The position numbers and the translations under genes are program-made. The notes below the pieces were generated by a model. That model did no database searches. It saw only the letters and a program-made list of their open reading frames with translations, and was not told the origin of the DNA. A stretch of 60,933 nucleotides of DNA, the filler included. It is 8 parts of 8 records of this genome, joined end to end, with 100 filler letters (N's around TTAATTAATTAA, not from the genome) between each part and the next. Parts side by side here need not be neighbours in the genome. Positions count along the whole stretch, not along the records: positions 30,416 to 41,572 come from SRR31156797_61564; 7 more parts are not named here. The stretch is one strand, 5' to 3'. Below are positions 7,916 through 53,818 of this stretch, piece after piece; the stretch's first letter is position 1, and each line of letters opens with the position of its first letter.

Positions 7916-8015
7916 NNNNNNNNNNNNNNNNNNNNNNNNNNNNNNNNNNNNNNNNNNNNTTAATTAATTAANNNNNNNNNNNNNNNNNNNNNNNNNNNNN
8001 NNNNNNNNNNNNNNN
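7916..8015. other. Artificial contig spacer
   Basis: N-run + TTAATTAATTAA (stop in all six frames) + N-run. Confidence 0.99.
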
Positions 8016-16004: not shown

Positions 16005-16104
16005 NNNNNNNNNNNNNNNNNNNNNNNNNNNNNNNNNNNNNNNNNNNNTTAATTAATTAANNNNNNNNNNNNNNNNNNNNNNNNNNNNNNNNNNNNNNNN
16101 NNNN
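16005..16104. other. Artificial contig spacer
   Basis: N-run + TTAATTAATTAA + N-run. Confidence 0.99.
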
Positions 16105-23103: not shown

Positions 23104-23203
23104 NNNNNNNNNNNNNNNNNNNNNNNNNNNNNNNNNNNNNNNNNNNNTTAATTAATTAANNNNNNNNNNNNNNNNNNNNNNNNNNNNNNNNNNNNNNNNN
23201 NNN
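23104..23203. other. Artificial contig spacer
   Basis: N-run + TTAATTAATTAA + N-run. Confidence 0.99.
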
Positions 23204-30315: not shown

Positions 30316-30415
30316 NNNNNNNNNNNNNNNNNNNNNNNNNNNNNNNNNNNNNNNNNNNNTTAATTAATTAANNNNNNNNNNNNNNNNNNNNNNNNNNNNN
30401 NNNNNNNNNNNNNNN
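30316..30415. other. Artificial contig spacer
   Basis: N-run + TTAATTAATTAA + N-run. Confidence 0.99.
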
Positions 30416-31805
30416 GGCCTGTTGTGCCCGGTTCCTCGCCCCGGGTCCACCATTTGGCAGTCCAGGTTTTTCCGTTGTGGCAGACTTCATCGCCATTGGT
30501 GTAGATTTCAGACGGATCCCAGGTGGACAGTGACGCGCCTCCTCCCACGGTGATCCCGATGGCCGCGGAATGGCCTATGGCGCCCTGATCGTCGGTTGCT
30601 ACAACTGTAATCACATGAGCACCTTCGGGAGGGTTGATCCATGAAAAACGGTAAGGGGCATTGTACTCCACACCCAAGGATGCGCCATCCGCCAGGAATT
30701 CCACCTGAATAACGGATCCGTCAGTATCGGTTGCATCCGCTGAAAGTATCACCGTTTCACCCGATTCAAATATGTCACCTTCAAGCGGGGCGGTAATGAC
30801 GGCTTGAGGTGAGCGGTTTCCACCGGGATCATTGCCGAAGCCCGTGAAAATATCCATGAAAGCGAATTCCGCCTGATCAAGCCCGCTGCATGTGGGATCG
30901 GCCCAGGCTTTGCCGGCGCATTGACCGTTGTCGCGACCGGCTGACCACATGGACAGCATGGTGACCCGGTCCGTGGATTTTGCCCATGAAAGGAGTTCTT
31001 CCGCATCGGAAAGGTAGAAGCGCTCGGATAGCACATCGTTCTGCCCGATCATGGGGGTGACACCCATCAGGGGATTGAGCCCAAGCCCCAGTGCCTGTTG
31101 ATAGGTGTTAACCGTAGCGTCAATGGCATATTGCCCCATGTTCCCTTCCGGGTGGGGCGCGGCCCAGTCCCCGTAGTCCATGGCCATGACGTTCACCACG
31201 TCCACCCTGACGCCGTTGGCGAGGGCATTTTCCAGGACGTAAAGGCCGTCATGGGTCAGGCCCGAGGGAAGGACGGGGAGGCAGAACGCCACGGTCAGCT
31301 CCGGGTTTGCTTCCTGGAGGCCTTTAATGGCTTTATTCCTGAGATCGATGGAAACCCTGTCGCCAACGGCCCACCCCTCAATGTCAAAGTCCACCCAGGA
31401 AACCCGGTAACGGTCAATGACCGACTGGTAGGCGGCCTGAAGTGTGTCCACATCGTTATGGCACATGGCCAGTTCCGTGCCGTTGGCGCCGCCAAAGGAG
31501 ATGATGACATCTCCCCCCTTTTGTCTAAGGGCATTGATTTCATCCAAATAGAAATTTTCTTCCAGGTCGATGACGCCCCCCCATGCGGGTTTGCAAGCGG
31601 TATCGGCGGTGATGAAGGCGAGGGTGTAATACGGTTGTCCGGTTTGGTCGAAGGTGTCACTGACGGAAAAGGTCGGATAGAGTAGCACATCCACATAGGG
31701 TGCAAAGACTTTTTCCGGGGTCCGGCCGGGGGAAGGAGATGTGAAAAGCAGCAGTATGGCCATAAAGATCAATAGTGCAGAAATATTAAGGTGTGTTTTT
31801 TTCAT
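30416..31805 (-). CDS. Secreted GH18 chitinase with Ig-like and CBM5/12-like domains, 3'-truncated
   Basis: Signal peptide, FAPYVD, ISFGG, catalytic VDFDIEG, NVMAMDYG, Ig-like repeat, AKWWTRGEEPG. Confidence 0.85.
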
Positions 31806-31993
31806 GATAAATTTCCTTTCTCAAATGGAGGCTGCCGGAAAAAACGGTTCCGGTACTGACGGCTATACACCTGAACATGAGATTTGGTCACAACAAAAAA
31901 TCCGGTTTGCTCCAAATTTCTTTCTTCTTGACCATAAAAAGAGCATTCCCCACAGGTTTTACAGGGTTCTGTAAACCATTTTCAAATATCCCC

Positions 31994-32034
31994 TTGACAG
32001 GAAAATCCGTGTCATGGTAGAAAGGTATAACCTT
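31994..32034 (+). promoter_or_regulatory. Sigma70-like promoter with overlapping FadR-type palindrome
   Basis: TTGACA (31994) then TG-g-TAGAAA; AAGGT-ATA-ACCTT at 32022-32034. Confidence 0.6.
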
Positions 32035-32057
32035 AGAACATCAGCTTAGGAGGATAT

Positions 32058-32765
32058 ATGGCGGCGCAGGGAAATGATCACTTTACGGTTATCGATCGTA
32101 AGCGGGTATCCGATGTGGTCATCGACCAGATCAAGCAGTTACTCCTGGATGCCAAATTGAATGTGGGAGACAGGCTCCCTCCCGAGCGGGAGCTGGCAAA
32201 ACAGCTGGGGGTCAGCCGTGCCCCCCTGAGAGAAGCTTTGTTCAGTCTGGCAAACTCCGGATTACTGAAGATTAAGAGGGGCGCAGGGGGAGGGAATTTC
32301 GTGTCTGAACCCAACATGGAACCCTTCGCCGAATCCTTTGCCCTCATGTTGCAGATGGGAAAAGCCAGTGTTCGGGATTTGACGGAGGCTAGGTTGTTTC
32401 TTGAACCGAATACCGCAAAATTGGCTGCTGAAAGAGCCACATCCGAGGATTTGGAAAATATTGAACGGAGTATCTCGGAGTATGAAAAAAAGGTTGACCA
32501 GGATGCACCCCGAAGCCTTGGGGATATGGAATTTCATGTGAATGTGGCGGAGGCCTCAAAGAATATCGTCATGATTTTGATGATTAAAGGTTTAATGGGG
32601 CTCCTTTACAAAACCGTCAAGGACTTTGCTTTATCCCGTGAAGATAAGGAAAAGAGTGCCCATACCCATAGCAGAATTTTTGAAGCCATCCGGACCCGTG
32701 ATTCGGAGCGTGCTTCCGAACTGATGGCCGAGCATGTAAAAGAAATGGCCGTTTTTTGGAAATAG
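32058..32765 (+). CDS. GntR/FadR-family transcriptional regulator
   Basis: GDRLPPERELAKQLGVSRAPLREAL HTH; FCD domain (DMEFH, H..IFEAI, EH). Confidence 0.92.
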   Translation: MAAQGNDHFTVIDRKRVSDVVIDQIKQLLLDAKLNVGDRLPPERELAKQLGVSRAPLREALFSLANSGLLKIKRGAGGGNFVSEPNMEPFAESFALMLQMGKASVRDLTEARLFLEPNTAKLAAERATSEDLENIERSISEYEKKVDQDAPRSLGDMEFHVNVAEASKNIVMILMIKGLMGLLYKTVKDFALSREDKEKSAHTHSRIFEAIRTRDSERASELMAEHVKEMAVFWK

Positions 32766-32823
32766 ATTGAAGAAACGTTTTTAAATAACTGAAAATACAA
32801 GTATTTTACGGGAGATATTCCCA

Positions 32824-33705
32824 TTGCTTTTGCCCAAATTTCAGTATCACGAGCCGCGGACCCTGATGGAAGCCTGCCGGATTATGGCGGAGCTCAAGGA
32901 TCGTGCCAGGCCTCTTGCCGGGGGGACGGATCTCCTTGTCAATATGAAAAAGGGCATTCTCTCACCGGAATCCCTGGTCTCCCTGTCCCTGATTCCGGAA
33001 CTCTCCCGTATGGAGAGTACCGGAGCCATGCTCAGAATAGGGGCCTGTGGTGCCATTTCGAAGCTGGCCGCATCCCGGGTGGTATGTGAAAAATTCAAGG
33101 CGCTGCGTTCAAGCGCCGGGAGTCTCGGTTCGCCCCTCATCCGGAACCTTGCCACCGCCGGGGGAAATCTTGTGAGCGCAAGGCCCGCGGCCGATCTCCC
33201 GCCTGCCCTCATGGCCTACGGCGCAAGGGTGGTACTGAAAAAGGTATCCGGAGAAAAAATTCTGCCGCTTCACGATTTTTTCCTGGGACCGGGACAAACC
33301 GCCATGGAAGCGGACGAGATCCTTACGGAGATTCTGGTTCCCGATCCCCCACCCGGATCAGGTGCCGCCCATATGAAACTGGGGAATCGGAAATCCCTGG
33401 AGATATCGGTGGTCAATGCGGCTTCCTTTATCTCACTTAGTGGCAGCGGGGAGACCATCGGAAAAGCCCGCATTGTGCTTGGGGCCGTTGCCCCCGTCCC
33501 CATGCGGGCCGTTTTTACGGAACGGTTGCTCACGGGAAAGAAAGCCTCCGACCTTCTGTTTCGCCGGGCCGCGGACCTAGCCGCCGCGGAATGCAGACCC
33601 ATTGATGATTTCAGGGGTTCCGCCCGTTACAGACGCGCCATGGTAATGGTGCTTGTGGAAAGAACCCTGAAAAAGGCATGGAAAAGAGCTGTACAATGGC
33701 CGTGA
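32824..33705 (+). CDS. Xanthine dehydrogenase family FAD-binding (medium) subunit
   Basis: LAGGTDL, IRNLATAGGNL, PIDDFRGSARYR; TTG start. Confidence 0.9.
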   Translation: MLLPKFQYHEPRTLMEACRIMAELKDRARPLAGGTDLLVNMKKGILSPESLVSLSLIPELSRMESTGAMLRIGACGAISKLAASRVVCEKFKALRSSAGSLGSPLIRNLATAGGNLVSARPAADLPPALMAYGARVVLKKVSGEKILPLHDFFLGPGQTAMEADEILTEILVPDPPPGSGAAHMKLGNRKSLEISVVNAASFISLSGSGETIGKARIVLGAVAPVPMRAVFTERLLTGKKASDLLFRRAADLAAAECRPIDDFRGSARYRRAMVMVLVERTLKKAWKRAVQWP

Positions 33706-33732
33706 AAGAGTTGAAGCCAAAATGGGAACCAA

Positions 33733-34218
33733 ATGAAAAAAAGTGTGAAACTCAGGATTAACCATCGGGATTATGAACTGGCGGTTACGCCCAACGAGAC
33801 CCTCCTGGAGGTACTCAGGGACCGATTGGGATTGACCGGGACCAAAACGGGATGCAACACGGGTGATTGTGGTGCCTGCACGGTTTTGATGGACGGAAAG
33901 CCGGTCAATAGTTGCCTCGTCCTGGCCGTGAGGGCGGAGGATTGTCACATTGCCACGGTGGAAGGGTTGGCCCAAGGAGAGGCCTTGAACCCGCTACAGA
34001 CGGCCTTTCTGGACAAAGGGGCCGTCCAGTGCGGATTCTGCACGCCCGGAATGCTCATGACCGCAACGGGTCTTATTGCTGAAAATCCCAATGCTTCAAA
34101 AGATGAAATCAAGGAGGCTTTGTCCGGCAACCTGTGCCGATGCACCGGATATGTGAAAATCATGGAAGCCGTCGAATCCCTGACCCATAAGGAAAAGCCC
34201 CGGGTAACCGGAGAATAA
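33733..34218 (+). CDS. Xanthine dehydrogenase family 2x[2Fe-2S] (small) subunit
   Basis: GCNTGDCGAC...C and QCGFCTPG...CRCTGY. Confidence 0.93.
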   Translation: MKKSVKLRINHRDYELAVTPNETLLEVLRDRLGLTGTKTGCNTGDCGACTVLMDGKPVNSCLVLAVRAEDCHIATVEGLAQGEALNPLQTAFLDKGAVQCGFCTPGMLMTATGLIAENPNASKDEIKEALSGNLCRCTGYVKIMEAVESLTHKEKPRVTGE

Positions 34219-34234
34219 TCAGTGAGGTGTTTTT

Positions 34235-35626
34235 TTGAAAGATCTTAGACAATGGATGGAAACCTTAAAGCGTGAGGCGCCCGAGGAACTGTTGCGGGTT
34301 CGGAAACGGGTGGATCCCGATGGTTTTGAGGTGACCGCCGTCATGGAAAAAATGGAATCGGAAAAACGGTTTCAATCGGTTTTATTCGAATCTCCGCAAT
34401 CCCATGATCATGGAGACCACGGTTTTCAGCTCCTCCTGAACACCTTCGGCACCTTTCAAAAGATGGCCGTCGCCTTGGATCTCCCGCCCCATGCGTCCAA
34501 AAGCCGGCTCATGGAGGAAATCCTGAAAAGGCAGGACCGGGAGAAAGGTGTGACCGTGATCGCACCCGAGGATGCACCCGTCAAGGAGAATACCGTGAGC
34601 GGGGATGCGGTGAACCTCGATATCCTCCCCATGGTCAGGCACGTGGACATGGATGGGGATTGCTACCTGACGCCCATCGTGGTCTCCAGGAACCCGTTGA
34701 CGGGACGGTATAATGTTTCCTGGAACAGGATGATGTACATGGATCGGAACCATCTGGCCATCTACATGTCGCCCAGGCATTTGTGGTCTTATTCCCGGGA
34801 AGCCGAAGAAAGGAATGAAAATCTCCCCGTGGCCGTGGTCCTGGGTCACCATCCCGCATTCCATATGACAGGTGCCCTTCTGACAGCCATGGACCGGGAT
34901 GAATACCGGGCCGCGTCCAGTTTTCTGGGGGAAGAGATCCGCGTGACGCCTTCCATTGCCTACGGGGATGATCTCCTGATCCCCGCCCATGCGGAGATCG
35001 TCATTGAAGGGGAAATCGTGGCCGGGAAACGGACCGTGGAGGGCCCCTTCGGGGAGTATACCGGATATTCCGGCCCCCAGAGGGTCTCCTGGCTCTTTGA
35101 GGCCAAGGCCATCAATTACAGGTCCGGCGGTATCATCATCGATATCTTTCCCTGTAAGACCGAACATATGAATGCCCACCTTCCCATAGAGGCCAGCCTT
35201 TTGCGGACCATGAAAGGAGCGGTTCCCGGCGTCATGGATACGAGCTGGGTCGATTCCGGCGGCCCCTTGACCATTATCATCAGAATGAAAAAAAGGGTTG
35301 ACGGAGAACCCATGAGGGCTGCCATGGCGGCTTTCAGCGCCAGCAATTTCATCAAGATGGCCATCATCGTCGATGAGGACATCGATCCTTTCAATCTCAA
35401 GGAGGTCATGTGGGCCGTATCCACGCGGGTTCAGCCCGAAGCGGATGTGCAGATCCTGAAAAACCTGCAGGGACACGTTTTGGATCCCTCTTTGAGAAGC
35501 GAAATCGATGGGAGCGGCATGATCATTGACGCCACAAAGCCGTTGGATCGACCGTTCCCCCGAAAAGGGGCCGTACCCGACCACCTGTGGCGGAACATAT
35601 CGCTGAAGGACTACCTCTGTGAATAG
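34235..35626 (+). CDS. UbiD-family prFMN-dependent (de)carboxylase
   Basis: KDLRQW, APVKE, N.SWNR, PRH, EGPFGEYTGY, VDEDIDP, WAVSTR, LDPS, IIDATKP; TTG start. Confidence 0.9.
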   Translation: MKDLRQWMETLKREAPEELLRVRKRVDPDGFEVTAVMEKMESEKRFQSVLFESPQSHDHGDHGFQLLLNTFGTFQKMAVALDLPPHASKSRLMEEILKRQDREKGVTVIAPEDAPVKENTVSGDAVNLDILPMVRHVDMDGDCYLTPIVVSRNPLTGRYNVSWNRMMYMDRNHLAIYMSPRHLWSYSREAEERNENLPVAVVLGHHPAFHMTGALLTAMDRDEYRAASSFLGEEIRVTPSIAYGDDLLIPAHAEIVIEGEIVAGKRTVEGPFGEYTGYSGPQRVSWLFEAKAINYRSGGIIIDIFPCKTEHMNAHLPIEASLLRTMKGAVPGVMDTSWVDSGGPLTIIIRMKKRVDGEPMRAAMAAFSASNFIKMAIIVDEDIDPFNLKEVMWAVSTRVQPEADVQILKNLQGHVLDPSLRSEIDGSGMIIDATKPLDRPFPRKGAVPDHLWRNISLKDYLCE

Positions 35627-35643
35627 AGAGAAAAGGACGCAAG

Positions 35644-35874
35644 ATGGATATCATTAATTTGACCTGCCCCGGATGTTCCGGAAAATATTACGGTGACACG
35701 ACATTACTCTCCCTCGATGTGGAACTGCACTGCCCCTTCTGCGGGTCTTATTTCAAGAGGGAAGAGATAAAAGAGATGGCGGGCGGCGATGGGAAACTAT
35801 CGGCCATTGTTCGGCTCAACCGGAATATGAGCTTTTACCGGCCGAAAGAAGAGAAGCATGGGGAGGAAGCGTGA
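35644..35874 (+). CDS. Small Zn-ribbon protein (CPGC...CPFC)
   Basis: 76 aa with two CxxC motifs; AAGGA SD; fills the gap between UbiD and the Mo subunit. Confidence 0.75.
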   Translation: MDIINLTCPGCSGKYYGDTTLLSLDVELHCPFCGSYFKREEIKEMAGGDGKLSAIVRLNRNMSFYRPKEEKHGEEA

Positions 35875-35877
35875 TCC

Positions 35878-38139
35878 ATGGGGCGGACCGTTGGAAAGCC
35901 ATTTCGGAAGATGGATGCCGAAGACAAACTCAGGGGAAGAGCCCCATATGCAGCCGATTATGGTGCGCCGGGCATGCTCTGGGTCAAGGTCGTGAGAAGT
36001 CATGTGCCCAGGGCGAGAGTTGAAAGGATTGATACGGGTCCGGCCTTGGCCGTATCCGGTGTAAAGGGCGTTTATACCGCAAAAGACATTCCGGGATCCA
36101 ACCGGGTCGGTCCCAGGGTCAAAGATGAATTTCTTCTTTCAGAAGACATGGTTCATGCCGTGGGAGACCCCATGGCCGTCGTGGCCGCTGATTCCAGGGA
36201 AGCCGCGCAGGAAGCGGCGGAACATGTGGAGGTTCGGTTCCGGGAATTGCCGCCCGTTCTGACCATTGAAGAGGCCATCGATTCGGATGCTCCCGAAATT
36301 CACGAGGGGGGGAATCTGGTCAAGGTTCGATCCATTGTGTCGGGTCATGTTGAGGAAGCCCTTGGATCGGCCCCTATCGTGATCTCAAATACTTATACCA
36401 CCCAGATGATCGAACATGCCTATATGGAGCCCGAAGCCGCCTTTGCGGCTTACGAGAACGGCAAACTGACCGTCCGGATGCCCAGCAAGTACATCAATGC
36501 GGATCATGGGGAATTGGCTTCCATTCTCAACCTGGAACCGGCCGATCTCCGGCTTGTCTTATCCACGGTGGGGGGGTATTTCGGGGGTAAGTCCGGCATT
36601 TCACCGGCCTATTACTGTGCCCTGGTGACCCGTCTTACGGGCAGGCCTTCCAAGATGGTCTATACCCGTGAGGAGTCCTTCATCTCATCCACCAAGCGAC
36701 ACCCCTGTATCATCGAACATACCCTGGGTGCGGGGATCGACGGTCGGCTCATGGCGGCCAAAATCAGAATCCTGGCCGACGCCGGGGCCTATACGGGGTT
36801 CAGCCCTTCCGTATTGTCCCGGGCCGCTGTTCACGCGGCAGGCCCCTATGAGGTCCCCAATGTCTCCGTGGATGCCTATATGGTCCATACCAATAATATC
36901 AACAGCGGTGCCATGAGGGGCTTCGGGGTTCCCCAGACAGCCTTTGCCCATGAAGCCCAGATGGATCTCCTGGCTGCCAGAATCGGCATGGATCCCGTGC
37001 TCCTTAGAAAAATGAATTTTCTCAAAAAAGGCTCAAAAACCATCACGGGTCAGCCATTGGCGTACGGCCCGGGCCTGGAGAAAACCTGCCATGAAGTGGC
37101 CTCCCGGATTCGAAAGGAGAGGCAACCATCGGACCCGAACCATGAGCGGTATGTGTACGGGTGGGGGGTGGCCTCCATGTACTACGGCATCGGGTCCACC
37201 GGCGTTCCGAACCCGGCCCATGTGGCCCTAGAGTGCCGTGGGGACGGTACGGTGGAGATTCTGGCGGGCATCACCGACGGAGGGCAGGGGGCCGCAACGG
37301 CGCTGAGCCAGATCGTTTCGGAAAGTCTGGGAATTCCCTTTGAAATGATCCGCTTCAAGCAACCCTCCACGGATGTGACGCCGGACAGCGGTACTTCCAC
37401 GGCAAGCCGCTTGACCTATGTGGTGGGTAGAGCCCTGTATGAGGCGGGGCGTTCACTCAAAAAAAAATGGATCAGCTATGCGGCCCGGCTCCTTTGTTGT
37501 CCCGCCGAATCGGTGCGTTTTGAGGAAGGGCTTTTTTACGTGGAGCATGGAACCGCGAAAATGTCCCTTACCCGGCTTATGGAGCGTGGAATAAAAGAAG
37601 GCATTACCTTTCGGACCGAGGGTCGTTTTGATCCCCATACCACCGCCCTGGATCCGGAGTCGGGTCAGGGGGTCCCCTATGGTGCCTATGCTTTTGCCAC
37701 CCAGGGCGCCTCGGTCCGGGTGGATCGCAAAACCGGCCGGGTGGAGGTCCTGAAGGTGGTTGCGGCCCATGATGTGGGAAAAGCCGTCAATCCCAACACC
37801 ATTGAGGCCCAGGTGGAGGGCGGGGTCGTCATGGGGATGGGTTACGGCATCATGGAGCAGGTGAAGCGGGAGAAGGGAACGATTCTGAACCCGGGATTTC
37901 ACGGATACCTGATCCCCACCTCCATGGATATCCCTGAAATTGAAACCATTATCGTGGAGGATCCGGAACCGACGGGTCCCTACGGGGCAAAAGGGCTCGG
38001 CGAACCGGTGCTGATCCCCACGGCCCCCGCCGTCCGGAATGCCGTTAGCAGGGCCACGGGGTGCCAGTTTTTTGAACTCCCCCTGACCCCTGAAAAAGTC
38101 TGGAGCGGCATGTGCTCGTCTGTTGAGGTGAATGAATGA
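35878..38139 (+). CDS. Xanthine dehydrogenase family molybdopterin-binding (large) subunit
   Basis: EHAYMEPE, GGYFGGK, GPYEVPN, AMRGFGVPQ, GQG, ASRLT, GAKGLGEP. Confidence 0.92.
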   Translation: MGRTVGKPFRKMDAEDKLRGRAPYAADYGAPGMLWVKVVRSHVPRARVERIDTGPALAVSGVKGVYTAKDIPGSNRVGPRVKDEFLLSEDMVHAVGDPMAVVAADSREAAQEAAEHVEVRFRELPPVLTIEEAIDSDAPEIHEGGNLVKVRSIVSGHVEEALGSAPIVISNTYTTQMIEHAYMEPEAAFAAYENGKLTVRMPSKYINADHGELASILNLEPADLRLVLSTVGGYFGGKSGISPAYYCALVTRLTGRPSKMVYTREESFISSTKRHPCIIEHTLGAGIDGRLMAAKIRILADAGAYTGFSPSVLSRAAVHAAGPYEVPNVSVDAYMVHTNNINSGAMRGFGVPQTAFAHEAQMDLLAARIGMDPVLLRKMNFLKKGSKTITGQPLAYGPGLEKTCHEVASRIRKERQPSDPNHERYVYGWGVASMYYGIGSTGVPNPAHVALECRGDGTVEILAGITDGGQGAATALSQIVSESLGIPFEMIRFKQPSTDVTPDSGTSTASRLTYVVGRALYEAGRSLKKKWISYAARLLCCPAESVRFEEGLFYVEHGTAKMSLTRLMERGIKEGITFRTEGRFDPHTTALDPESGQGVPYGAYAFATQGASVRVDRKTGRVEVLKVVAAHDVGKAVNPNTIEAQVEGGVVMGMGYGIMEQVKREKGTILNPGFHGYLIPTSMDIPEIETIIVEDPEPTGPYGAKGLGEPVLIPTAPAVRNAVSRATGCQFFELPLTPEKVWSGMCSSVEVNE

Positions 38140-40040
38140 AAAGCTATGGCTGGAATGAATTTTGGACGTCCAGGCACTGGTCTCAGAAGGTGGCGGCCGT
38201 TGTGGCCGTGACCCTTACGGTTTTCCAGATCGCCACGGCCCTATTCGGAGCCTTTGATGCCATCATACAAAGGAGCATCCATCTGGGCCTCGGTTTGGTT
38301 TTGGTGTTTTTGGTCCATGCCTGGGGAAAGAAAAAAGGGAGACCGTTGCCGAACGGGCTGGATTGGGTTCTCATCCTTTTCTCCATTCTCTGTATCGGAT
38401 ACCTTCTGACCCACTATGAATGGGTCATGGTGGAACGTTTCAGGTTGATCACGCCCTTAGCGTGGTATGAAAAGATCCTGGGTGTGGCCATGATTGTTCT
38501 GGTGGTGGAGGCCACGCGGCGGGTTTTCGGTAAAGCCCTCTTCTATGTTGTTCTGGCCTTTATGGTCTACCCCTTTGCGGGTCCCTACCTGCCCGGTTTT
38601 CTTCACATGGCGCCGCTCTCATGGTTGGATCTGGTGGATTTCAACTATCTTTCGCTGGGCGGCATCTTCGGTGTCCCCTTGGGCGTTTCCGCCACGGAAA
38701 TCGCTCTTTTCATCATCTTCGGTTCCATCCTCATGCATACGGGAGGATCTCAGCTTTTCAGCAATCTTGCCTCCGGGCTGACCGGACGCATGGCGGGCGG
38801 ACCGGCCAAGGTGGCCATCATCGCCAGTTCCCTCATGGGCACCATTACAGGGAGCGGCGCCGCCAATGTGGCCACCACCGGGAGCGTTACCATCCCCATG
38901 ATGAAAAAGGCCGGCTATAAGCCCGAGTTCGCCGGTGCCGTGGAGGCCCTATCTTCAACGGGGGGGCAGCTCATGCCGCCCGTTATGGGTGCTGCCGCCT
39001 TCGTTATGGCGGCTTTCAGCGGCATCCCCTACCGAACCATCCTCGGTTATGCCCTGTTTCCGGCCATCCTCTTTTTCGTGTGTGTTTTCGTCTCGGTTCA
39101 TCTGGAGGCCAAAAAATACAACCTCTCCGGCGCTGAACCGGAACAATCATTTAAAAAGACTCTGAAAGATTACGGCCATATGATCATCCCCATCGGGGTT
39201 TTGGTCTATATACTGCTTGCCGGTTATTCGCCGCGGCTTGCGGGGGGGTATGGCGTTATCAGCGCCATCCTGGCTTGTCAGTGCCGACGGACCACCCGTC
39301 TGAGCATGCCCGGGCTCCTTTCGGCCCTGGAAGACGGGGCCAAGGGGATGCTCATTGTAGTGATCTCCACGGCGGCCGCGGGCATCATTGTGGGGATTGT
39401 GGATCTCAGCGGCCTCGGGAATCGCCTGGGGACCGTCTTTATCGATCTGGCCGCCGGAAATCTCCTGGTGGGGCTCATTTTAGGGATGCTCATCGCACTC
39501 CTTTTAGGCCTTGGAATACCCACGACCCCGGCCTACATCGTTCAGGTGGCAACGGTCATTCCCGCCCTCATCGCCTTGGGGTTACCCGACTACGTGGCCC
39601 ATCTTTTCGCTTTTTACTATTCCTGCCTGTCGTTGATTTCACCCCCCGTTGCCGCCGCGGCTTTTACGGCGGCCGCCATTGCCAAGGCGGACGGCTGGAA
39701 AACGGGCTGGATATCCATGAGAATCGGCGTGGTGGCCTTTGTGGTGCCCATCATGTTTGCCTATGACCAGGCTCTGCTTTTGGTGGGGCCTTTCTGGAAG
39801 ATCGTCCTGGTGGTTTTGACCGCGTGCCTGGGCACATCCTGTTTTGCCATTGCGGGAGAAGGATATCTCATGCGGCATCTCACGTGGTTTGAGCGGATGG
39901 TGGCTTTGGTGGCGGCGCTCCTGCTGATTTATCCCTCATTAACCAACAGTTTGGTGGGCCTAGGTCTGTTCGGCCTGCTGCTCGTGATGCAAATTTACGG
40001 CCGGGATCCCATGGCGCGGGCGAAAGTATCCCGATCATGA
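38136..40040 (+). CDS. TRAP transporter fused permease (4TM/12TM)
   Basis: EATRR, GIFGVPL, GGPAKVA, ANVATTGSVTIP, STGGQLMPPVMGAAAF. Confidence 0.92.
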   Translation: MKSYGWNEFWTSRHWSQKVAAVVAVTLTVFQIATALFGAFDAIIQRSIHLGLGLVLVFLVHAWGKKKGRPLPNGLDWVLILFSILCIGYLLTHYEWVMVERFRLITPLAWYEKILGVAMIVLVVEATRRVFGKALFYVVLAFMVYPFAGPYLPGFLHMAPLSWLDLVDFNYLSLGGIFGVPLGVSATEIALFIIFGSILMHTGGSQLFSNLASGLTGRMAGGPAKVAIIASSLMGTITGSGAANVATTGSVTIPMMKKAGYKPEFAGAVEALSSTGGQLMPPVMGAAAFVMAAFSGIPYRTILGYALFPAILFFVCVFVSVHLEAKKYNLSGAEPEQSFKKTLKDYGHMIIPIGVLVYILLAGYSPRLAGGYGVISAILACQCRRTTRLSMPGLLSALEDGAKGMLIVVISTAAAGIIVGIVDLSGLGNRLGTVFIDLAAGNLLVGLILGMLIALLLGLGIPTTPAYIVQVATVIPALIALGLPDYVAHLFAFYYSCLSLISPPVAAAAFTAAAIAKADGWKTGWISMRIGVVAFVVPIMFAYDQALLLVGPFWKIVLVVLTACLGTSCFAIAGEGYLMRHLTWFERMVALVAALLLIYPSLTNSLVGLGLFGLLLVMQIYGRDPMARAKVSRS

Positions 40041-40059
40041 ATGAGCGGCAAAAGGCCCA

Positions 40060-40095
40060 TGGGTCTGATTTGGGGTCTGATTCGGGGTCTGATTT
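40060..40095 (+). repeat. Three tandem ~12-bp repeats GGGGTCTGATT(T/C)
   Basis: TGGGTCTGATTT-GGGGTCTGATTC-GGGGTCTGATTT. Confidence 0.85.
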
Positions 40096-40160
40096 GCATA
40101 TCACGTAACCGTAAACCCGTTGTACCAACGAAGTGAAAGGCTTGAAAGGAGGAGAAAGGT

Positions 40161-41129
40161 ATGTTGAGGATGGGTAGGTTTTTCAAGATTTGTCTGGTTT
40201 TGGCCGTTTTTTTTACGGTGGGTGGCTTGGCTAAGGGGGCATCCGCATATGAAATTCGCTGGGGAACGGCGCCCGCGGGGGGTGTATGGCAGGCCCTGGG
40301 AACCGCCATGTTGAACGATGCCCTGAAGGCGAATCCGGATCTCAAGGGCTCCACTCTGCCCCTGGGGGGAGCGGCCAATGTGGTGGCCATCAATGTGGGG
40401 AAACTGAATGTATGCTTTTCCTTCTCCACCATGGCGGCGGAAGCCTGGGACGGGATCGCCTTTTTCAAGAAATACGGGGAAATGAAAAACATCCGGGGTC
40501 TTGCGGTCCTGTTTCCGGAGCCGACCCAGTTCGCGGTCTGGGCCGATTCCGGGATCGATGACGTCACACAGTTAAAAGGAAAATCAATGACGCCGGGGCC
40601 CAAAGGTTCCGCCATCGCACCCGTAACAAAGTATGTGCTGGAGGCCTACGGTTTGACCTTCAAGGATTTCAAGACCCGGTATATGAGTTTCAGAGAGGCC
40701 GGGCAGCAGATGATCGACGGTCATATCGATGCCATCCTGTACGGCGCCATGGCCTATCCGGCACCACCGCTCATTGCTGCCGGGAGCAGGCGGCAGATCA
40801 AACTCCTTTCTTTGTCGGACGATGCCATCGCGAGCGTGCTGAAGGCCCACAAGGGGCTGGATCCCTATACCCTGGCCAAGGGTTCCTATAAGGGCGTGGA
40901 TTATCCGGTGAAAGGGATTGTCGCCTATGTGGTGGTCCTTTGCAGCAAGGATATGCCGGATGAGGCGGCTTACGGTATCGCAAAGAGCATTTCGGAAAAT
41001 TTCGACAGTTATAAGACCATTTCAAAAGCCATCGCTCTCGGTAAAAAGGAGGATATGGGAAAAAATGTGGGGATTCCCATGCATGCCGGGGCCCTGAAGT
41101 ATTACAAGGAGAAGGGGTGGGTTCATTAA
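40161..41129 (+). CDS. TAXI-family TRAP solute-binding protein
   Basis: Signal peptide, GTAPAGGVW, NIRGLAVLFPE, GIPMHAGALKYYKEKG. Confidence 0.9.
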   Translation: MLRMGRFFKICLVLAVFFTVGGLAKGASAYEIRWGTAPAGGVWQALGTAMLNDALKANPDLKGSTLPLGGAANVVAINVGKLNVCFSFSTMAAEAWDGIAFFKKYGEMKNIRGLAVLFPEPTQFAVWADSGIDDVTQLKGKSMTPGPKGSAIAPVTKYVLEAYGLTFKDFKTRYMSFREAGQQMIDGHIDAILYGAMAYPAPPLIAAGSRRQIKLLSLSDDAIASVLKAHKGLDPYTLAKGSYKGVDYPVKGIVAYVVVLCSKDMPDEAAYGIAKSISENFDSYKTISKAIALGKKEDMGKNVGIPMHAGALKYYKEKGWVH

Positions 41130-41156
41130 GGTACCGATCCGACTTCTTCAGCACCG

Positions 41157-41198
41157 ACCGTGAGCTGGGCTTCGGCCCTGCTCACGGTTATGGTTTTT
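41157..41198 (+). terminator. Stem-loop after the TAXI gene (terminator or stabiliser)
   Basis: ACCGTGAGC-TGGGC-TTCG-GCCC-TGCTCACGGT followed by an imperfect T-rich tract. Confidence 0.5.
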
Positions 41199-41223
41199 GA
41201 AAAAGGAAAAAAGGAGGAGAATC

Positions 41224-41572
41224 ATGCCCGAAAGGGTCGAGGTTACCGTTCTTGTGGACAATTATATTGACATTTTTATTCCGTCCACTGAAATTACCGC
41301 ATATCCCGTCCCCGGGAACGGCTCCATGTTGTGGGCCGAGCAGGGACTTTCCCTCTGGATCCAAGTCTGGAATCGGGGAGAAAAATTCAGCCTTCTTTAT
41401 GACTTCGGAAGGAGTGAAGAGGTCCCGCTCCGCAATGCTCAACTTTTGGGGCTGGATTTCAGCGGTTTGGATGCCATGGCCCTGAGTCATGGGCACATCG
41501 ACCATTACGGTTGTCTGCTCCCGGTTCTTCAAAAAACAAAGGAGGAATGCCGTCTTTTTTGTCATCCCAAAG
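41224..41572 (+). CDS. MBL-fold metallo-hydrolase, 3'-truncated
   Basis: TVLVDN, AEQGLS, LYDFG, LSHGHIDHYG; AGGAGG SD. Confidence 0.85.
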
Positions 41573-41672
41573 NNNNNNNNNNNNNNNNNNNNNNNNNNNN
41601 NNNNNNNNNNNNNNNNTTAATTAATTAANNNNNNNNNNNNNNNNNNNNNNNNNNNNNNNNNNNNNNNNNNNN
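41573..41672. other. Artificial contig spacer
   Basis: N-run + TTAATTAATTAA + N-run. Confidence 0.99.
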
Positions 41673-47270: not shown

Positions 47271-47370
47271 NNNNNNNNNNNNNNNNNNNNNNNNNNNNNN
47301 NNNNNNNNNNNNNNTTAATTAATTAANNNNNNNNNNNNNNNNNNNNNNNNNNNNNNNNNNNNNNNNNNNN
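47271..47370. other. Artificial contig spacer
   Basis: N-run + TTAATTAATTAA + N-run. Confidence 0.99.
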
Positions 47371-53718: not shown

Positions 53719-53818
53719 NNNNNNNNNNNNNNNNNNNNNNNNNNNNNNNNNNNNNNNNNNNNTTAATTAATTAANNNNNNNNNNNNNNNNNNNNNNNNNN
53801 NNNNNNNNNNNNNNNNNN
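53719..53818. other. Artificial contig spacer
   Basis: N-run + TTAATTAATTAA + N-run. Confidence 0.99.

Follow-up and report, generated by a model that had tools for sequence, protein, structure and literature searches.

The window analysed here is a stretch of DNA of 60,933 bases in which eight contigs (5.6-11.2 kb each) have been joined end to end by seven 100-base spacers. One of these contigs, at positions 30416-41572 (11,157 bp; GC content 0.55), carries a run of nine genes that brings together a UbiD-family decarboxylase, a three-subunit molybdenum (Mo) hydroxylase of the xanthine oxidase family, and a solute importer of the tripartite ATP-independent periplasmic (TRAP) type. The other seven contigs need not adjoin this one in the genome. 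A first-pass annotation had listed nine genes at 32058-41572, all on the + strand, and calls of open reading frames (ORFs) and protein families bear out their order and show them to be tightly packed. The features of the cluster are as follows.

31994..32036, + strand: putative promoter TTGACA (31994-31999), then operator-like TAACCTTAG (32028-32036), 22 nt before the gntR ATG
32058-32765, + strand: GntR/FadR-type (FCD) regulator, first gene (PF00392, E 9.7e-18; PF07729, E 2.8e-26)
32824-33705, + strand: flavin adenine dinucleotide (FAD)-binding, or medium, subunit of a xanthine-oxidase-family Mo hydroxylase (FAD_binding_5 PF00941, E 1.2e-47; CO_deh_flav_C PF03450, E 1.8e-22)
33733-34218, + strand: 2x[2Fe-2S] (FeS), or small, subunit (Fer2_2 PF01799, E 3.4e-33; Fer2 PF00111, E 3.6e-08)
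34235-35626, + strand: UbiD-family, prenylated flavin mononucleotide (prFMN) decarboxylase, HmfF-like (UbiD_N/UbiD/UbiD_C, PF20695, PF01977, PF20696; TIGR00148, 282.8 bits, cutoff 244.85)
35644-35874, + strand: zinc-ribbon ORF of 76 amino acids (aa), candidate UbiD small subunit (C8, C11, C30, C33; C-terminal Y-x-P)
35878-38139, + strand: molybdopterin-binding (Mo), or large, subunit, 753 aa (Ald_Xan_dh_C, MoCoBD_1 and MoCoBD_2; PF01315, PF02738, PF20256)
38136-40040, + strand: fused TRAP (DctQM-type) permease (TIGR02123, 606.8 bits, cutoff 320.65)
40161-41129, + strand: TAXI periplasmic solute-binding protein with an N-terminal signal-like segment (TIGR02122, 204.2 bits, cutoff 84.35)
41224..41572, + strand: metallo-beta-lactamase (MBL)-fold metallo-hydrolase, N-terminal third (PF00753, 26.5 bits, cutoff 22.7; HGHIDH motif)

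The intergenic gaps are, in order, 58, 27, 16, 17, 3, -4, 120, and ~94 nt, with the Mo and TRAP genes sharing a 4-nt overlap. The UbiD and zinc-ribbon genes stand between the FAD and FeS genes and the Mo gene, and the decarboxylase thus splits the three-subunit Mo enzyme, as had been remarked from the sequence. The MBL ORF opens at 41197, although the ATG at 41224, which is preceded by AGGAGG, is the likelier start. This gene is broken off by the end of the contig at 41572, which is also the end coordinate of the earlier annotation, and ~116-125 codons are left of a protein whose orthologues have ~310-314 aa; the fragment is 43% identical to a 314-aa protein of a related locus (L002) over 128 residues. 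The description of the operon as self-contained goes too far, since the contig stops inside the MBL gene, relatives keep their UbiX gene elsewhere, and one subclade borrows FAD and FeS subunits from a neighboring module.

Relatives of the cluster were collected with a UbiD profile, which yielded 80 loci from each of two sources, species genomes and metagenomes (the L numbers used here). The window proteins were mapped onto these loci by tblastn, and three further genome regions (L163, L165, and L166) were added later. A search for synteny had been proposed as a check, and it reveals that the arrangement is not peculiar to this genome. The UbiD protein is 54-75% identical to that of the window in 15 loci, although the sequence of one of these (L089) is the same as that of L001. 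A zinc-ribbon gene and then a Mo subunit gene follow UbiD in all 14 loci with room for them, with the remaining locus (L090) ending at UbiD. The FeS gene precedes UbiD in 11 of the 15; FAD is also visible in nine, and the other two (L085 and L093) start inside FeS. The TRAP permease comes after the Mo subunit wherever there is room (8/8), with TAXI and MBL genes next (5/5).

The full order of the window is found in L002 and L166, and the order from FAD through MBL is found in L084 and L087, whereas contig-limited but consistent pieces of the cluster occur in L081-83, L085, L086, L088, L092, L093, and L110, which brings the related loci with this order to 13. Full-length MBL orthologues close the operon in L001, L002, L084, L087, L163, L165, and L166. 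Five more loci (L001 and the identical L089, L090, L163, and L165) represent a variant in which the GntR gene lies directly before UbiD and the cluster lacks dedicated FAD and FeS genes. A sister clade (L091, L108, L096, L100, L094, and L003) reshuffles the TRAP, TAXI, FeS, Mo, zinc-ribbon, UbiD, FAD, MBL, and UbiX genes, and a more distant clade with 38-43% UbiD identity has the order FeS, Mo, FAD, UbiD, a 49-aa zinc ribbon, and a second UbiD. Recurrence of the pairing in same-type, sister, and distant clades indicates that the link between UbiD and the Mo hydroxylase is old. The hosts are uncultured anaerobes, and the named relatives are Desulfarculaceae and Thermodesulfobacteriota metagenome-assembled genomes. 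All component families are known, whereas the combination is apparently undescribed: the literature searches found no description of this set of genes (UbiD, Mo hydroxylase, TAXI, and the others).

Among solved structures, the closest relative of the UbiD protein is HmfF, the 2,5-furandicarboxylate (FDCA) decarboxylase of Pelotomaculum thermopropionicum (6h6x; E 1.2e-62, 215 bits, residues 3-461 in a PDB search; E 3.4e-88 with a profile). The next are VdcC (7ae4, E 4.2e-50), indole-3-carboxylate decarboxylase, and AroY, whereas phthaloyl-CoA decarboxylase is distant (8oz5, E 3.8e-14). The VdcC model NF041204 gives 277.5 bits against a cutoff of 650, which places the protein outside VdcC orthology. 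Residues R165, E269, and E274, the latter two in the stretch EGPFGE, are invariant in all 25 rows of alignment A1, and we take them to be the E-R-E catalytic residues of the UbiD family. Such a motif is described for the family (PMC8988006).

In a FastTree phylogeny of 189 UbiD sequences, all from the collected loci and with no characterized UbiD (HmfF included) among the leaves, the window protein falls in a clade of 15 leaves (clade A; support 99) made up of itself and 14 same-type loci. This clade lies inside a superclade of 39 leaves (support 100) that is separate from the clades with cultured Alpha- and Betaproteobacteria, Streptomyces, or Enterobacterales. On this basis, the decarboxylase appears to stand outside the clades with cultured or characterized relatives. 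One position deserves separate mention. His311 aligns with the histidine at HmfF chain position 296, which is numbered H297 in PMC7976604, where the HmfF histidine is described as key to furan specificity and as equivalent to Asn318 of the pyrrole-2-carboxylate enzyme. All 17 clade-A-like rows of A1 retain the histidine; among the other eight, six have Asn and two have His, and the sister group has Asn at this position. The difference between clade A and its sister group suggests that the two act on related but different rings.

The 76-aa protein had been listed simply as a Zn-ribbon, and it proves to be a conserved, UbiD-linked subunit candidate rather than a stray ORF. Its cysteine knuckles (C8/C11 and C30/C33) and its C-terminal Y-x-P are conserved in alignment A2. 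The gene is adjacent to UbiD in 29 of 30 loci (at least 49% identity, with room) by regular expression and in the 30th by tblastn, and it stays beside UbiD even where no Mo gene follows (L097-99 and L103-106). The 49-aa form of the 38-43% clade is homologous to it (hhalign 98.6%). All 68 database relatives are annotated as hypothetical, and a search of the ESM Atlas gave only clusters of hypothetical proteins. A predicted complex of the UbiD and zinc-ribbon proteins scored 0.58, compared with 0.00 for the best control, and points weakly to an association; 51 of 78 solved complexes and 2 of 108 mismatches pass the mark used, and scores of 0.60 or less account for only 5 of those 78 and for every one of the 4 passing mismatches among 180. 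At least 83% of contacts are shared between the runs, and the predicted local distance difference test (pLDDT) of the partner is at least 66. Its gene linkage leads us to read the 76-aa protein as a probable accessory subunit of UbiD that belongs to a new sequence family.

A precedent for such a subunit is VdcD of the VdcCD and VdcBCD systems (Sedimentibacter, Bacillus, and Streptomyces), in which a UbiD is likewise accompanied by an adjacent protein of ~70 aa with two CXXC knuckles. VdcD is reported to be a zinc ribbon (Cys3/6/28/31) that VdcC needs for activity (PMC8379154), and ORFs with the exact VdcD cysteine pattern follow UbiX and UbiD in the Streptomyces and Enterobacterales loci. The searches did not bear out the idea that the 76-aa protein is a VdcD homologue, and we treat it as an analogue only. 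The knuckles are 18 residues apart rather than 21, no homology to six VdcD-like ORFs was detectable (hhalign 11.5%), and PDB searches with the protein and with profile A2 returned generic zinc fingers only. Similarly, a Foldseek search with the AlphaFold model (pLDDT 70.5) gave no match at E 0.001 or better and generic zinc ribbons at E 0.2 or worse.

The hydroxylase has the complete domain set of a three-subunit xanthine-oxidase-family enzyme (Mo, FAD, and 2x[2Fe-2S]). No equivalog model reaches its cutoff (the best, pucD, gives 532.5 against 783.65), and the enzyme can therefore be assigned to the family but to no particular specificity. The best solved relatives of its Mo subunit are the two large chains of Eubacterium barkeri nicotinate dehydrogenase (3hrd_A, E 7.3e-100, 338.5 bits; 3hrd_B, E 5.4e-77, 262.9 bits), followed by 4-hydroxybenzoyl-CoA reductase (4-HBCR; 1rm6, E 2e-91). 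Orthology with 4-HBCR was tried and rejected, given alpha, beta, and gamma model scores of 463.6 against 994.55, 126 (in two stretches) against 404.55, and 191 against 257.8. Both parts of the TAXI-TRAP transporter are above curated scores, although the TAXI protein is far from solved TAXI proteins (E 4e-30 at best). For the MBL hydrolase, the nearest solved relatives of a full-length orthologue are uncharacterized (2p4z and 3h3e), there is no NCBIfam match, Pfam offers no clue to function, and the ESM Atlas yields generic MBL clusters only.

The first-pass annotation had also pointed out that neither a coenzyme A (CoA) ligase nor UbiX lies in the visible part of the cluster, and this holds for the window as a whole. 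A test for ligases with a PROSITE-style AMP-binding motif, which is blind to CoA transferases, found no signature in the eight contigs of the window, in the clade-A loci, or in the loci of clades B and C except L095. Outside clade A, the signature is present in L095 and, directly beside UbiD, in several clades of 32-40% identity. No CoA transferase was found among the neighbor genes scanned with Pfam. No UbiX gene and no further Mo subunit gene occur in the window; UbiX lies near the cluster in L001 (~1 kb beyond MBL), L091 (right after MBL), and L096, and it is present in all five cluster-bearing related genomes that were checked.

The strongest hint regarding the substrate comes from the neighbors of the cluster in other genomes. 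In L087, whose UbiD is 75% identical to that of the window, the cluster forms the tail of one long co-directional string of genes for an aldehyde dehydrogenase resembling methylmalonate semialdehyde dehydrogenase (MMSDH), a second Mo subunit, an amidohydrolase, a 115-aa ORF, a 481-aa Fer4 protein, an ApbE-like protein, AA_synth, FAD, and FeS, and then from UbiD onward. The sole PDB match of the amidohydrolase is E. barkeri enamidase (2vun, E 4e-160, full length), which opens 6-oxo-1,4,5,6-tetrahydronicotinate to 2-formylglutarate in anaerobic nicotinate breakdown (PMC9304392). In L163/L164 and in L165, the same module directly abuts the cluster. The module is located as follows.

L163:13781-19691 with L164:343-3045, and L165:258-9142: FeS, FAD, second Mo, 481-aa Fer4, ApbE-like, helix-turn-helix (HTH)-cupin, enamidase, AA_synth (PF06684), and MMSDH-like aldehyde dehydrogenase
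L087:38-8397, and also L161 and L162: positions of the module elsewhere

Overall, the cluster adjoins or is fused to an enamidase module in five related loci, and the enamidase orthologue of the module in related loci is 60-67% identical. Nicotinate dehydrogenase is matched a little better by the second Mo subunit of L087 (376 + 265 bits) than by the Mo subunit of the window (338.5 + 262.9). This second Mo subunit (48-49% identical) and the aldehyde dehydrogenase (58-59%) recur in the sister-clade loci L091 and L108, the former of which encodes the enamidase (56%) as well. In G001 and G002, the genomes from which L001 and L002 come, the enamidase, AA_synth, and aldehyde dehydrogenase trio lies on contigs other than those of the cluster. 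In the class to which G002 belongs, the UbiD (55-58% identity) is present in 12 of 95 genomes and the enamidase in 45; 11 of the 12 UbiD-positive genomes have the enamidase, compared with 34 of the 83 UbiD-negative ones (Fisher p 0.0012, with relatedness ignored). In addition, the enamidase orthologues of G001 (G001:C23:13839-15002), G062, G064, and G067 contain a single in-frame TAA at seemingly the same place (open frame 385 aa), which could be a shared start/stop annotation effect or a real interruption.

The best guess for the substrate is an N-heteroaromatic, pyridine-type carboxylate, given that the cluster is repeatedly linked to the enamidase module and that its Mo subunit resembles nicotinate dehydrogenase; this type of substrate is favored over a furan. 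We hold with moderate confidence that the genes are a conserved catabolic operon of uncultured anaerobes, in which a CoA-free route feeds a pyridine-type carboxylate into nicotinate-type breakdown. The first-pass annotation had proposed uptake, decarboxylation, and hydroxylation of a free heteroaromatic acid such as a pyridine, pyrrole, or furan dicarboxylate; a pyridine dicarboxylate is the best fit among these options, and the pyrrole and furan options are less favored.

In the proposed scheme, the GntR/FCD repressor would control the operon, probably from the TAACCTTAG site over its own promoter, and the TAXI-TRAP system would import the organic acid. The three-subunit Mo hydroxylase, a cytoplasmic enzyme, would add a water-derived hydroxyl group next to the ring heteroatom, and the HmfF-like prFMN decarboxylase, with its dedicated 76-aa zinc-ribbon subunit, would remove a ring carboxylate. 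The MBL-fold hydrolase might act last, on a bond that the scheme does not specify, and no CoA activation would be involved. The most likely substrate would be a pyridine-type dicarboxylate or a hydroxypyridine carboxylate, with the product joining the nicotinate-type route via 6-hydroxynicotinate, ring reduction, enamidase, and 2-formylglutarate. Gene identities, the conserved order, the linkage of UbiD to the zinc ribbon, the lack of ligase signatures, and the linkage to the enamidase module are direct observations; what the scheme infers is the substrate, which of hydroxylation and decarboxylation comes first, the role of the MBL protein, and the operator. Mo hydroxylases attack electron-poor rings, and prFMN needs electron-rich ones. 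Given these preferences, hydroxylation could ready a pyridine dicarboxylate for decarboxylation. A more specific version, which is possible yet tentative, is that UbiD with its zinc ribbon and the Mo hydroxylase form an O2- and CoA-independent pair that swaps a ring carboxylate for a hydroxyl group, or hydroxylates first, and thereby funnels quinolinate, isocinchomeronate, or dinicotinate into the anaerobic nicotinate pathway.

The nicotinate fermentation of E. barkeri (NdhFSLM, 6-hydroxynicotinate reductase, and enamidase) is a known system that bears on this pyridine reading. Among solved proteins, the Mo subunit is nearest to NdhL and NdhM, and the cluster of the relatives lies beside an enamidase orthologue and a second nicotinate-dehydrogenase-like set. 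Unlike the window, where the large subunit is a single 753-aa chain, E. barkeri has it split into L and M, and the E. barkeri pathway is not known to involve a UbiD, TAXI, or MBL protein. The lower part also differs, in that the relatives have AA_synth and the MMSDH-like dehydrogenase. This trio with enamidase hints at a fate of 2-formylglutarate other than the E. barkeri route, perhaps oxidative decarboxylation to glutaryl-CoA.

Several points weigh against a pyridine substrate or against parts of the scheme. The nearest characterized UbiD, HmfF, acts on furan rather than pyridine, and the literature searched yielded no prFMN enzyme with a pyridine substrate. Were nicotinate formed by decarboxylation alone, the Mo hydroxylase and the MBL protein would be superfluous, and the scheme as proposed leaves the MBL protein without an explained role. 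The placement of the decarboxylase and the lack of ligases are both bounded by their methods, one being a FastTree without characterized sequences and the other a PROSITE-style motif that cannot see CoA transferases. The linkage evidence likewise has its limits. The contrast among the 95 genomes ignores relatedness, and most of the positives are probably close kin. The enamidase lies ~1 Mb or more from the cluster in G060 and G093 and on another contig in the other linked genomes, and the window itself holds no enamidase module. Finally, the module has its own Mo hydroxylase, and the two modules could share an island yet serve different substrates.

The alternative that survives best is a CoA-independent furan route, in which FDCA is imported, UbiD converts it to 2-furoate, the Mo enzyme hydroxylates C5, and the MBL protein acts as a lactonase that opens the enol-lactone tautomer to give 2-oxoglutarate. 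This scheme has the merit of employing every enzyme, the MBL protein included, and by our inferred chemistry it would be redox-balanced. HmfF is the closest solved UbiD and aligns end to end, the specificity histidine is kept (PMC7976604), and automatic naming at JGI calls many homologues '2,5-furandicarboxylate decarboxylase 1'. The hmf pathway (HmfF 6h6v/6h6x; HmfABCDE and HmfG of Cupriavidus basilensis) also pairs its UbiD with a three-subunit xanthine-oxidase-family enzyme that hydroxylates the carbon beside the heteroatom. In addition, aldehyde-oxidizing genes lie nearby in relatives (aldehyde ferredoxin oxidoreductase in L084; aldehyde dehydrogenases in L087, L091, and L108), a review states that anaerobic furan pathways are unknown (PMC3223595), and some proteobacterial hmf clusters are reported to have an 'Imp'-type TRAP system (PMC8091172).

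Other points speak against this route. The window UbiD belongs to a separate clade, outside those with cultured Proteobacteria, and matches HmfF at 215 bits only. It has a zinc-ribbon partner that looks obligatory and always accompanies UbiDs of the window type, whereas gene context and structural work suggest that HmfF needs no small subunit. The genomic company of hmf genes (hmfG, which is UbiX, and hmfABCDE, which include a furoyl-CoA ligase) is not seen in the window, which has no ligase signature and no adjacent UbiX. The window type lacks a hydratase as well, has TAXI-TRAP uptake and an MBL hydrolase, and resides in anaerobic hosts. An electron-rich furoate would be a poor target for nucleophilic hydroxylation by a Mo enzyme, and the known route needs the CoA ester. 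The nearest solved relative of the Mo subunit is nicotinate dehydrogenase, and the neighboring enamidase module points to N-heterocycles. The furan route explains neither the small subunit, nor the module, nor the CoA-free hydroxylation of free furoate, and it is unlikely.

A parallel branch of nicotinate metabolism might instead be served, with the Mo hydroxylase making 6-hydroxynicotinate, UbiD and its zinc ribbon decarboxylating this to 2-pyridone, and the MBL protein and others opening the ring. The similarity of the Mo subunit to nicotinate dehydrogenase fits such a branch, and three of its homologues are named 'nicotinate dehydrogenase large molybdopterin subunit' by JGI. prFMN chemistry generally favors hydroxy-activated rings. 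The decarboxylation would be the aza-analogue of that of 4-hydroxybenzoate by VdcCD, whose two-subunit layout (PMC8379154) is also similar. However, the first step would be duplicated, since the enamidase module has its own nicotinate-dehydrogenase-like set, and the UbiD score of 277.5 bits is far from the VdcC cutoff of 650. The transporters of the sister clusters (TAXI, TTT, and DctP) hint weakly at di-acids. This branch is quite unlikely.

Dipicolinate, the pyridine-2,6-dicarboxylate of spores, or picolinate could also be considered, with decarboxylation to picolinate followed by hydroxylation of the carbon that lost the carboxylate, giving 6-hydroxypicolinate. Sediments are rich in dipicolinate, and its aerobic regulator DipR is also of the GntR/FadR type (PMC11472048). 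As the aza-analogue of FDCA, dipicolinate has a carboxylate on each side of the heteroatom, and His311 could contact the ring nitrogen. Nevertheless, 6-hydroxypicolinate does not feed the neighboring enamidase and 2-formylglutarate route as laid out in PMC9304392, an unactivated pyridine would be a poor prFMN substrate, and the known dip pathway is described as using a monooxygenase, with no Mo cofactor needed (PMC11472048). We regard this option as decidedly unlikely.

A benzenoid phenolic-acid system (a VdcCD-like decarboxylase with a 4-HBCR-like enzyme), or a UbiD that carboxylates an uncharged heterocycle, is very unlikely: VdcC is the second-best solved UbiD relative, 4-HBCR alpha is the second-best match of the Mo subunit, and UbiD reactions are reversible (PMC8988006), yet all 4-HBCR models are far under cutoff, same-type loci have no CoA-ligase signature, and an acid importer speaks against an uncharged substrate. 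The anaerobic degradation of phthalate isomers similarly combines a UbiD with carboxylate uptake in anaerobes, but its phthaloyl- and isophthaloyl-CoA decarboxylases are very distant UbiDs that act on CoA esters made by ligases or transferases, and no Mo hydroxylase takes part.

The genes by which strict anaerobes degrade heteroaromatic acids, such as pyridine carboxylates from cofactors and spores or furans from heated biomass, are largely unknown, and operons of the present type are common in sediment, groundwater, and digester metagenomes. They provide testable candidates in the form of a new UbiD clade with a small zinc subunit and a nicotinate-dehydrogenase-like hydroxylase, and the ligands of the TAXI protein and the regulator would name the substrate. 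If the pyridine reading is true, the decarboxylase would be the first prFMN enzyme to act on a pyridine ring, with a new class of UbiD accessory subunit, and the enamidase, AA_synth, and MMSDH-like dehydrogenase would constitute an undescribed lower pathway, possibly from 2-formylglutarate to glutaryl-CoA. UbiD enzymes are sought as reversible carboxylation catalysts, and new ring systems would be of practical interest.

Some further features concern the control region. The sequence TAACCTTAG occurs once in the window. L081, L082, and L083 have it at the equivalent position before gntR, and only 3 of the 157 other loci contain it. It is probably the operator through which the GntR/FCD repressor acts on its own promoter. 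Orthologues of gntR (45-66% identity) lie upstream in L001, L002, L081-83, L090, and L092. The gap between gntR and the FAD gene contains a perfect 16-bp palindrome, AAAATACAAGTATTTT, at 32792-32807, and after it a small hairpin overlapping the ribosome-binding site. This palindrome was considered as an operator and rejected because it is not kept in other loci.

Other observations relate to the window as a composite. The joins between contigs are these.

7916-8015, 16005-16104, 23104-23203, 30316-30415, 41573-41672, 47271-47370, 53719-53818: contig-join spacers, each consisting of an N run, TTAATTAATTAA, and an N run
30316..30415, no strand: spacer, 5' border of the cluster contig
41573..41672, no strand: spacer, 3' border of the cluster contig

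ORFs that cross a spacer, such as 30360-31805 on the - strand, are artefactual at the spacer end. The spread of GC content among the eight contigs, from 0.33 to 0.63, points to a bin that is mixed or contaminated. Upstream of the cluster, on the opposite strand, there is a partial GH18/Big_7/CBM5_12 protein that is unrelated to it.

Variation among the collected loci is also worth recording. The MBL gene of L087 (L087:17153-18087) is present as two overlapping ORFs (154 and 174 aa), reflecting a frameshift or a sequencing error. In the sister clusters L109:2309-9893 and L108:11828-14729, TctCBA and DctPQM importers replace or join TAXI-TRAP; the uptake system is interchangeable there, while UbiD, the zinc ribbon, and the Mo hydroxylase persist. 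Soil and groundwater contigs (L119, L122, L128, L139, L144, L147, L154, and others; UbiD 38-40%) carry the two-UbiD system with the same small-protein family, and some of them have an ORF with the AMP-ligase signature. A different layout is seen in Shinella fusca (L054:180-11944), where genes for LysR, a xanthine/uracil-type permease, FAD, FeS, and Mo subunits, a CobW-like GTPase, two Amidohydro_2 proteins, UbiD, and UbiX occur without a CoA ligase. Similar clusters are present in L055, L061, L062, L064, L051, L074, L066, and L045, all in cultured Alpha- and Betaproteobacteria. These loci were rejected as hmf clusters or HmfF anchors because they have no ligase and instead have the nucleobase-type permease and the two Amidohydro_2 genes. 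They appear to be a further uncharacterized case in which UbiD is paired with a Mo hydroxylase, possibly to act on an N-heterocycle, and their hosts are culturable.

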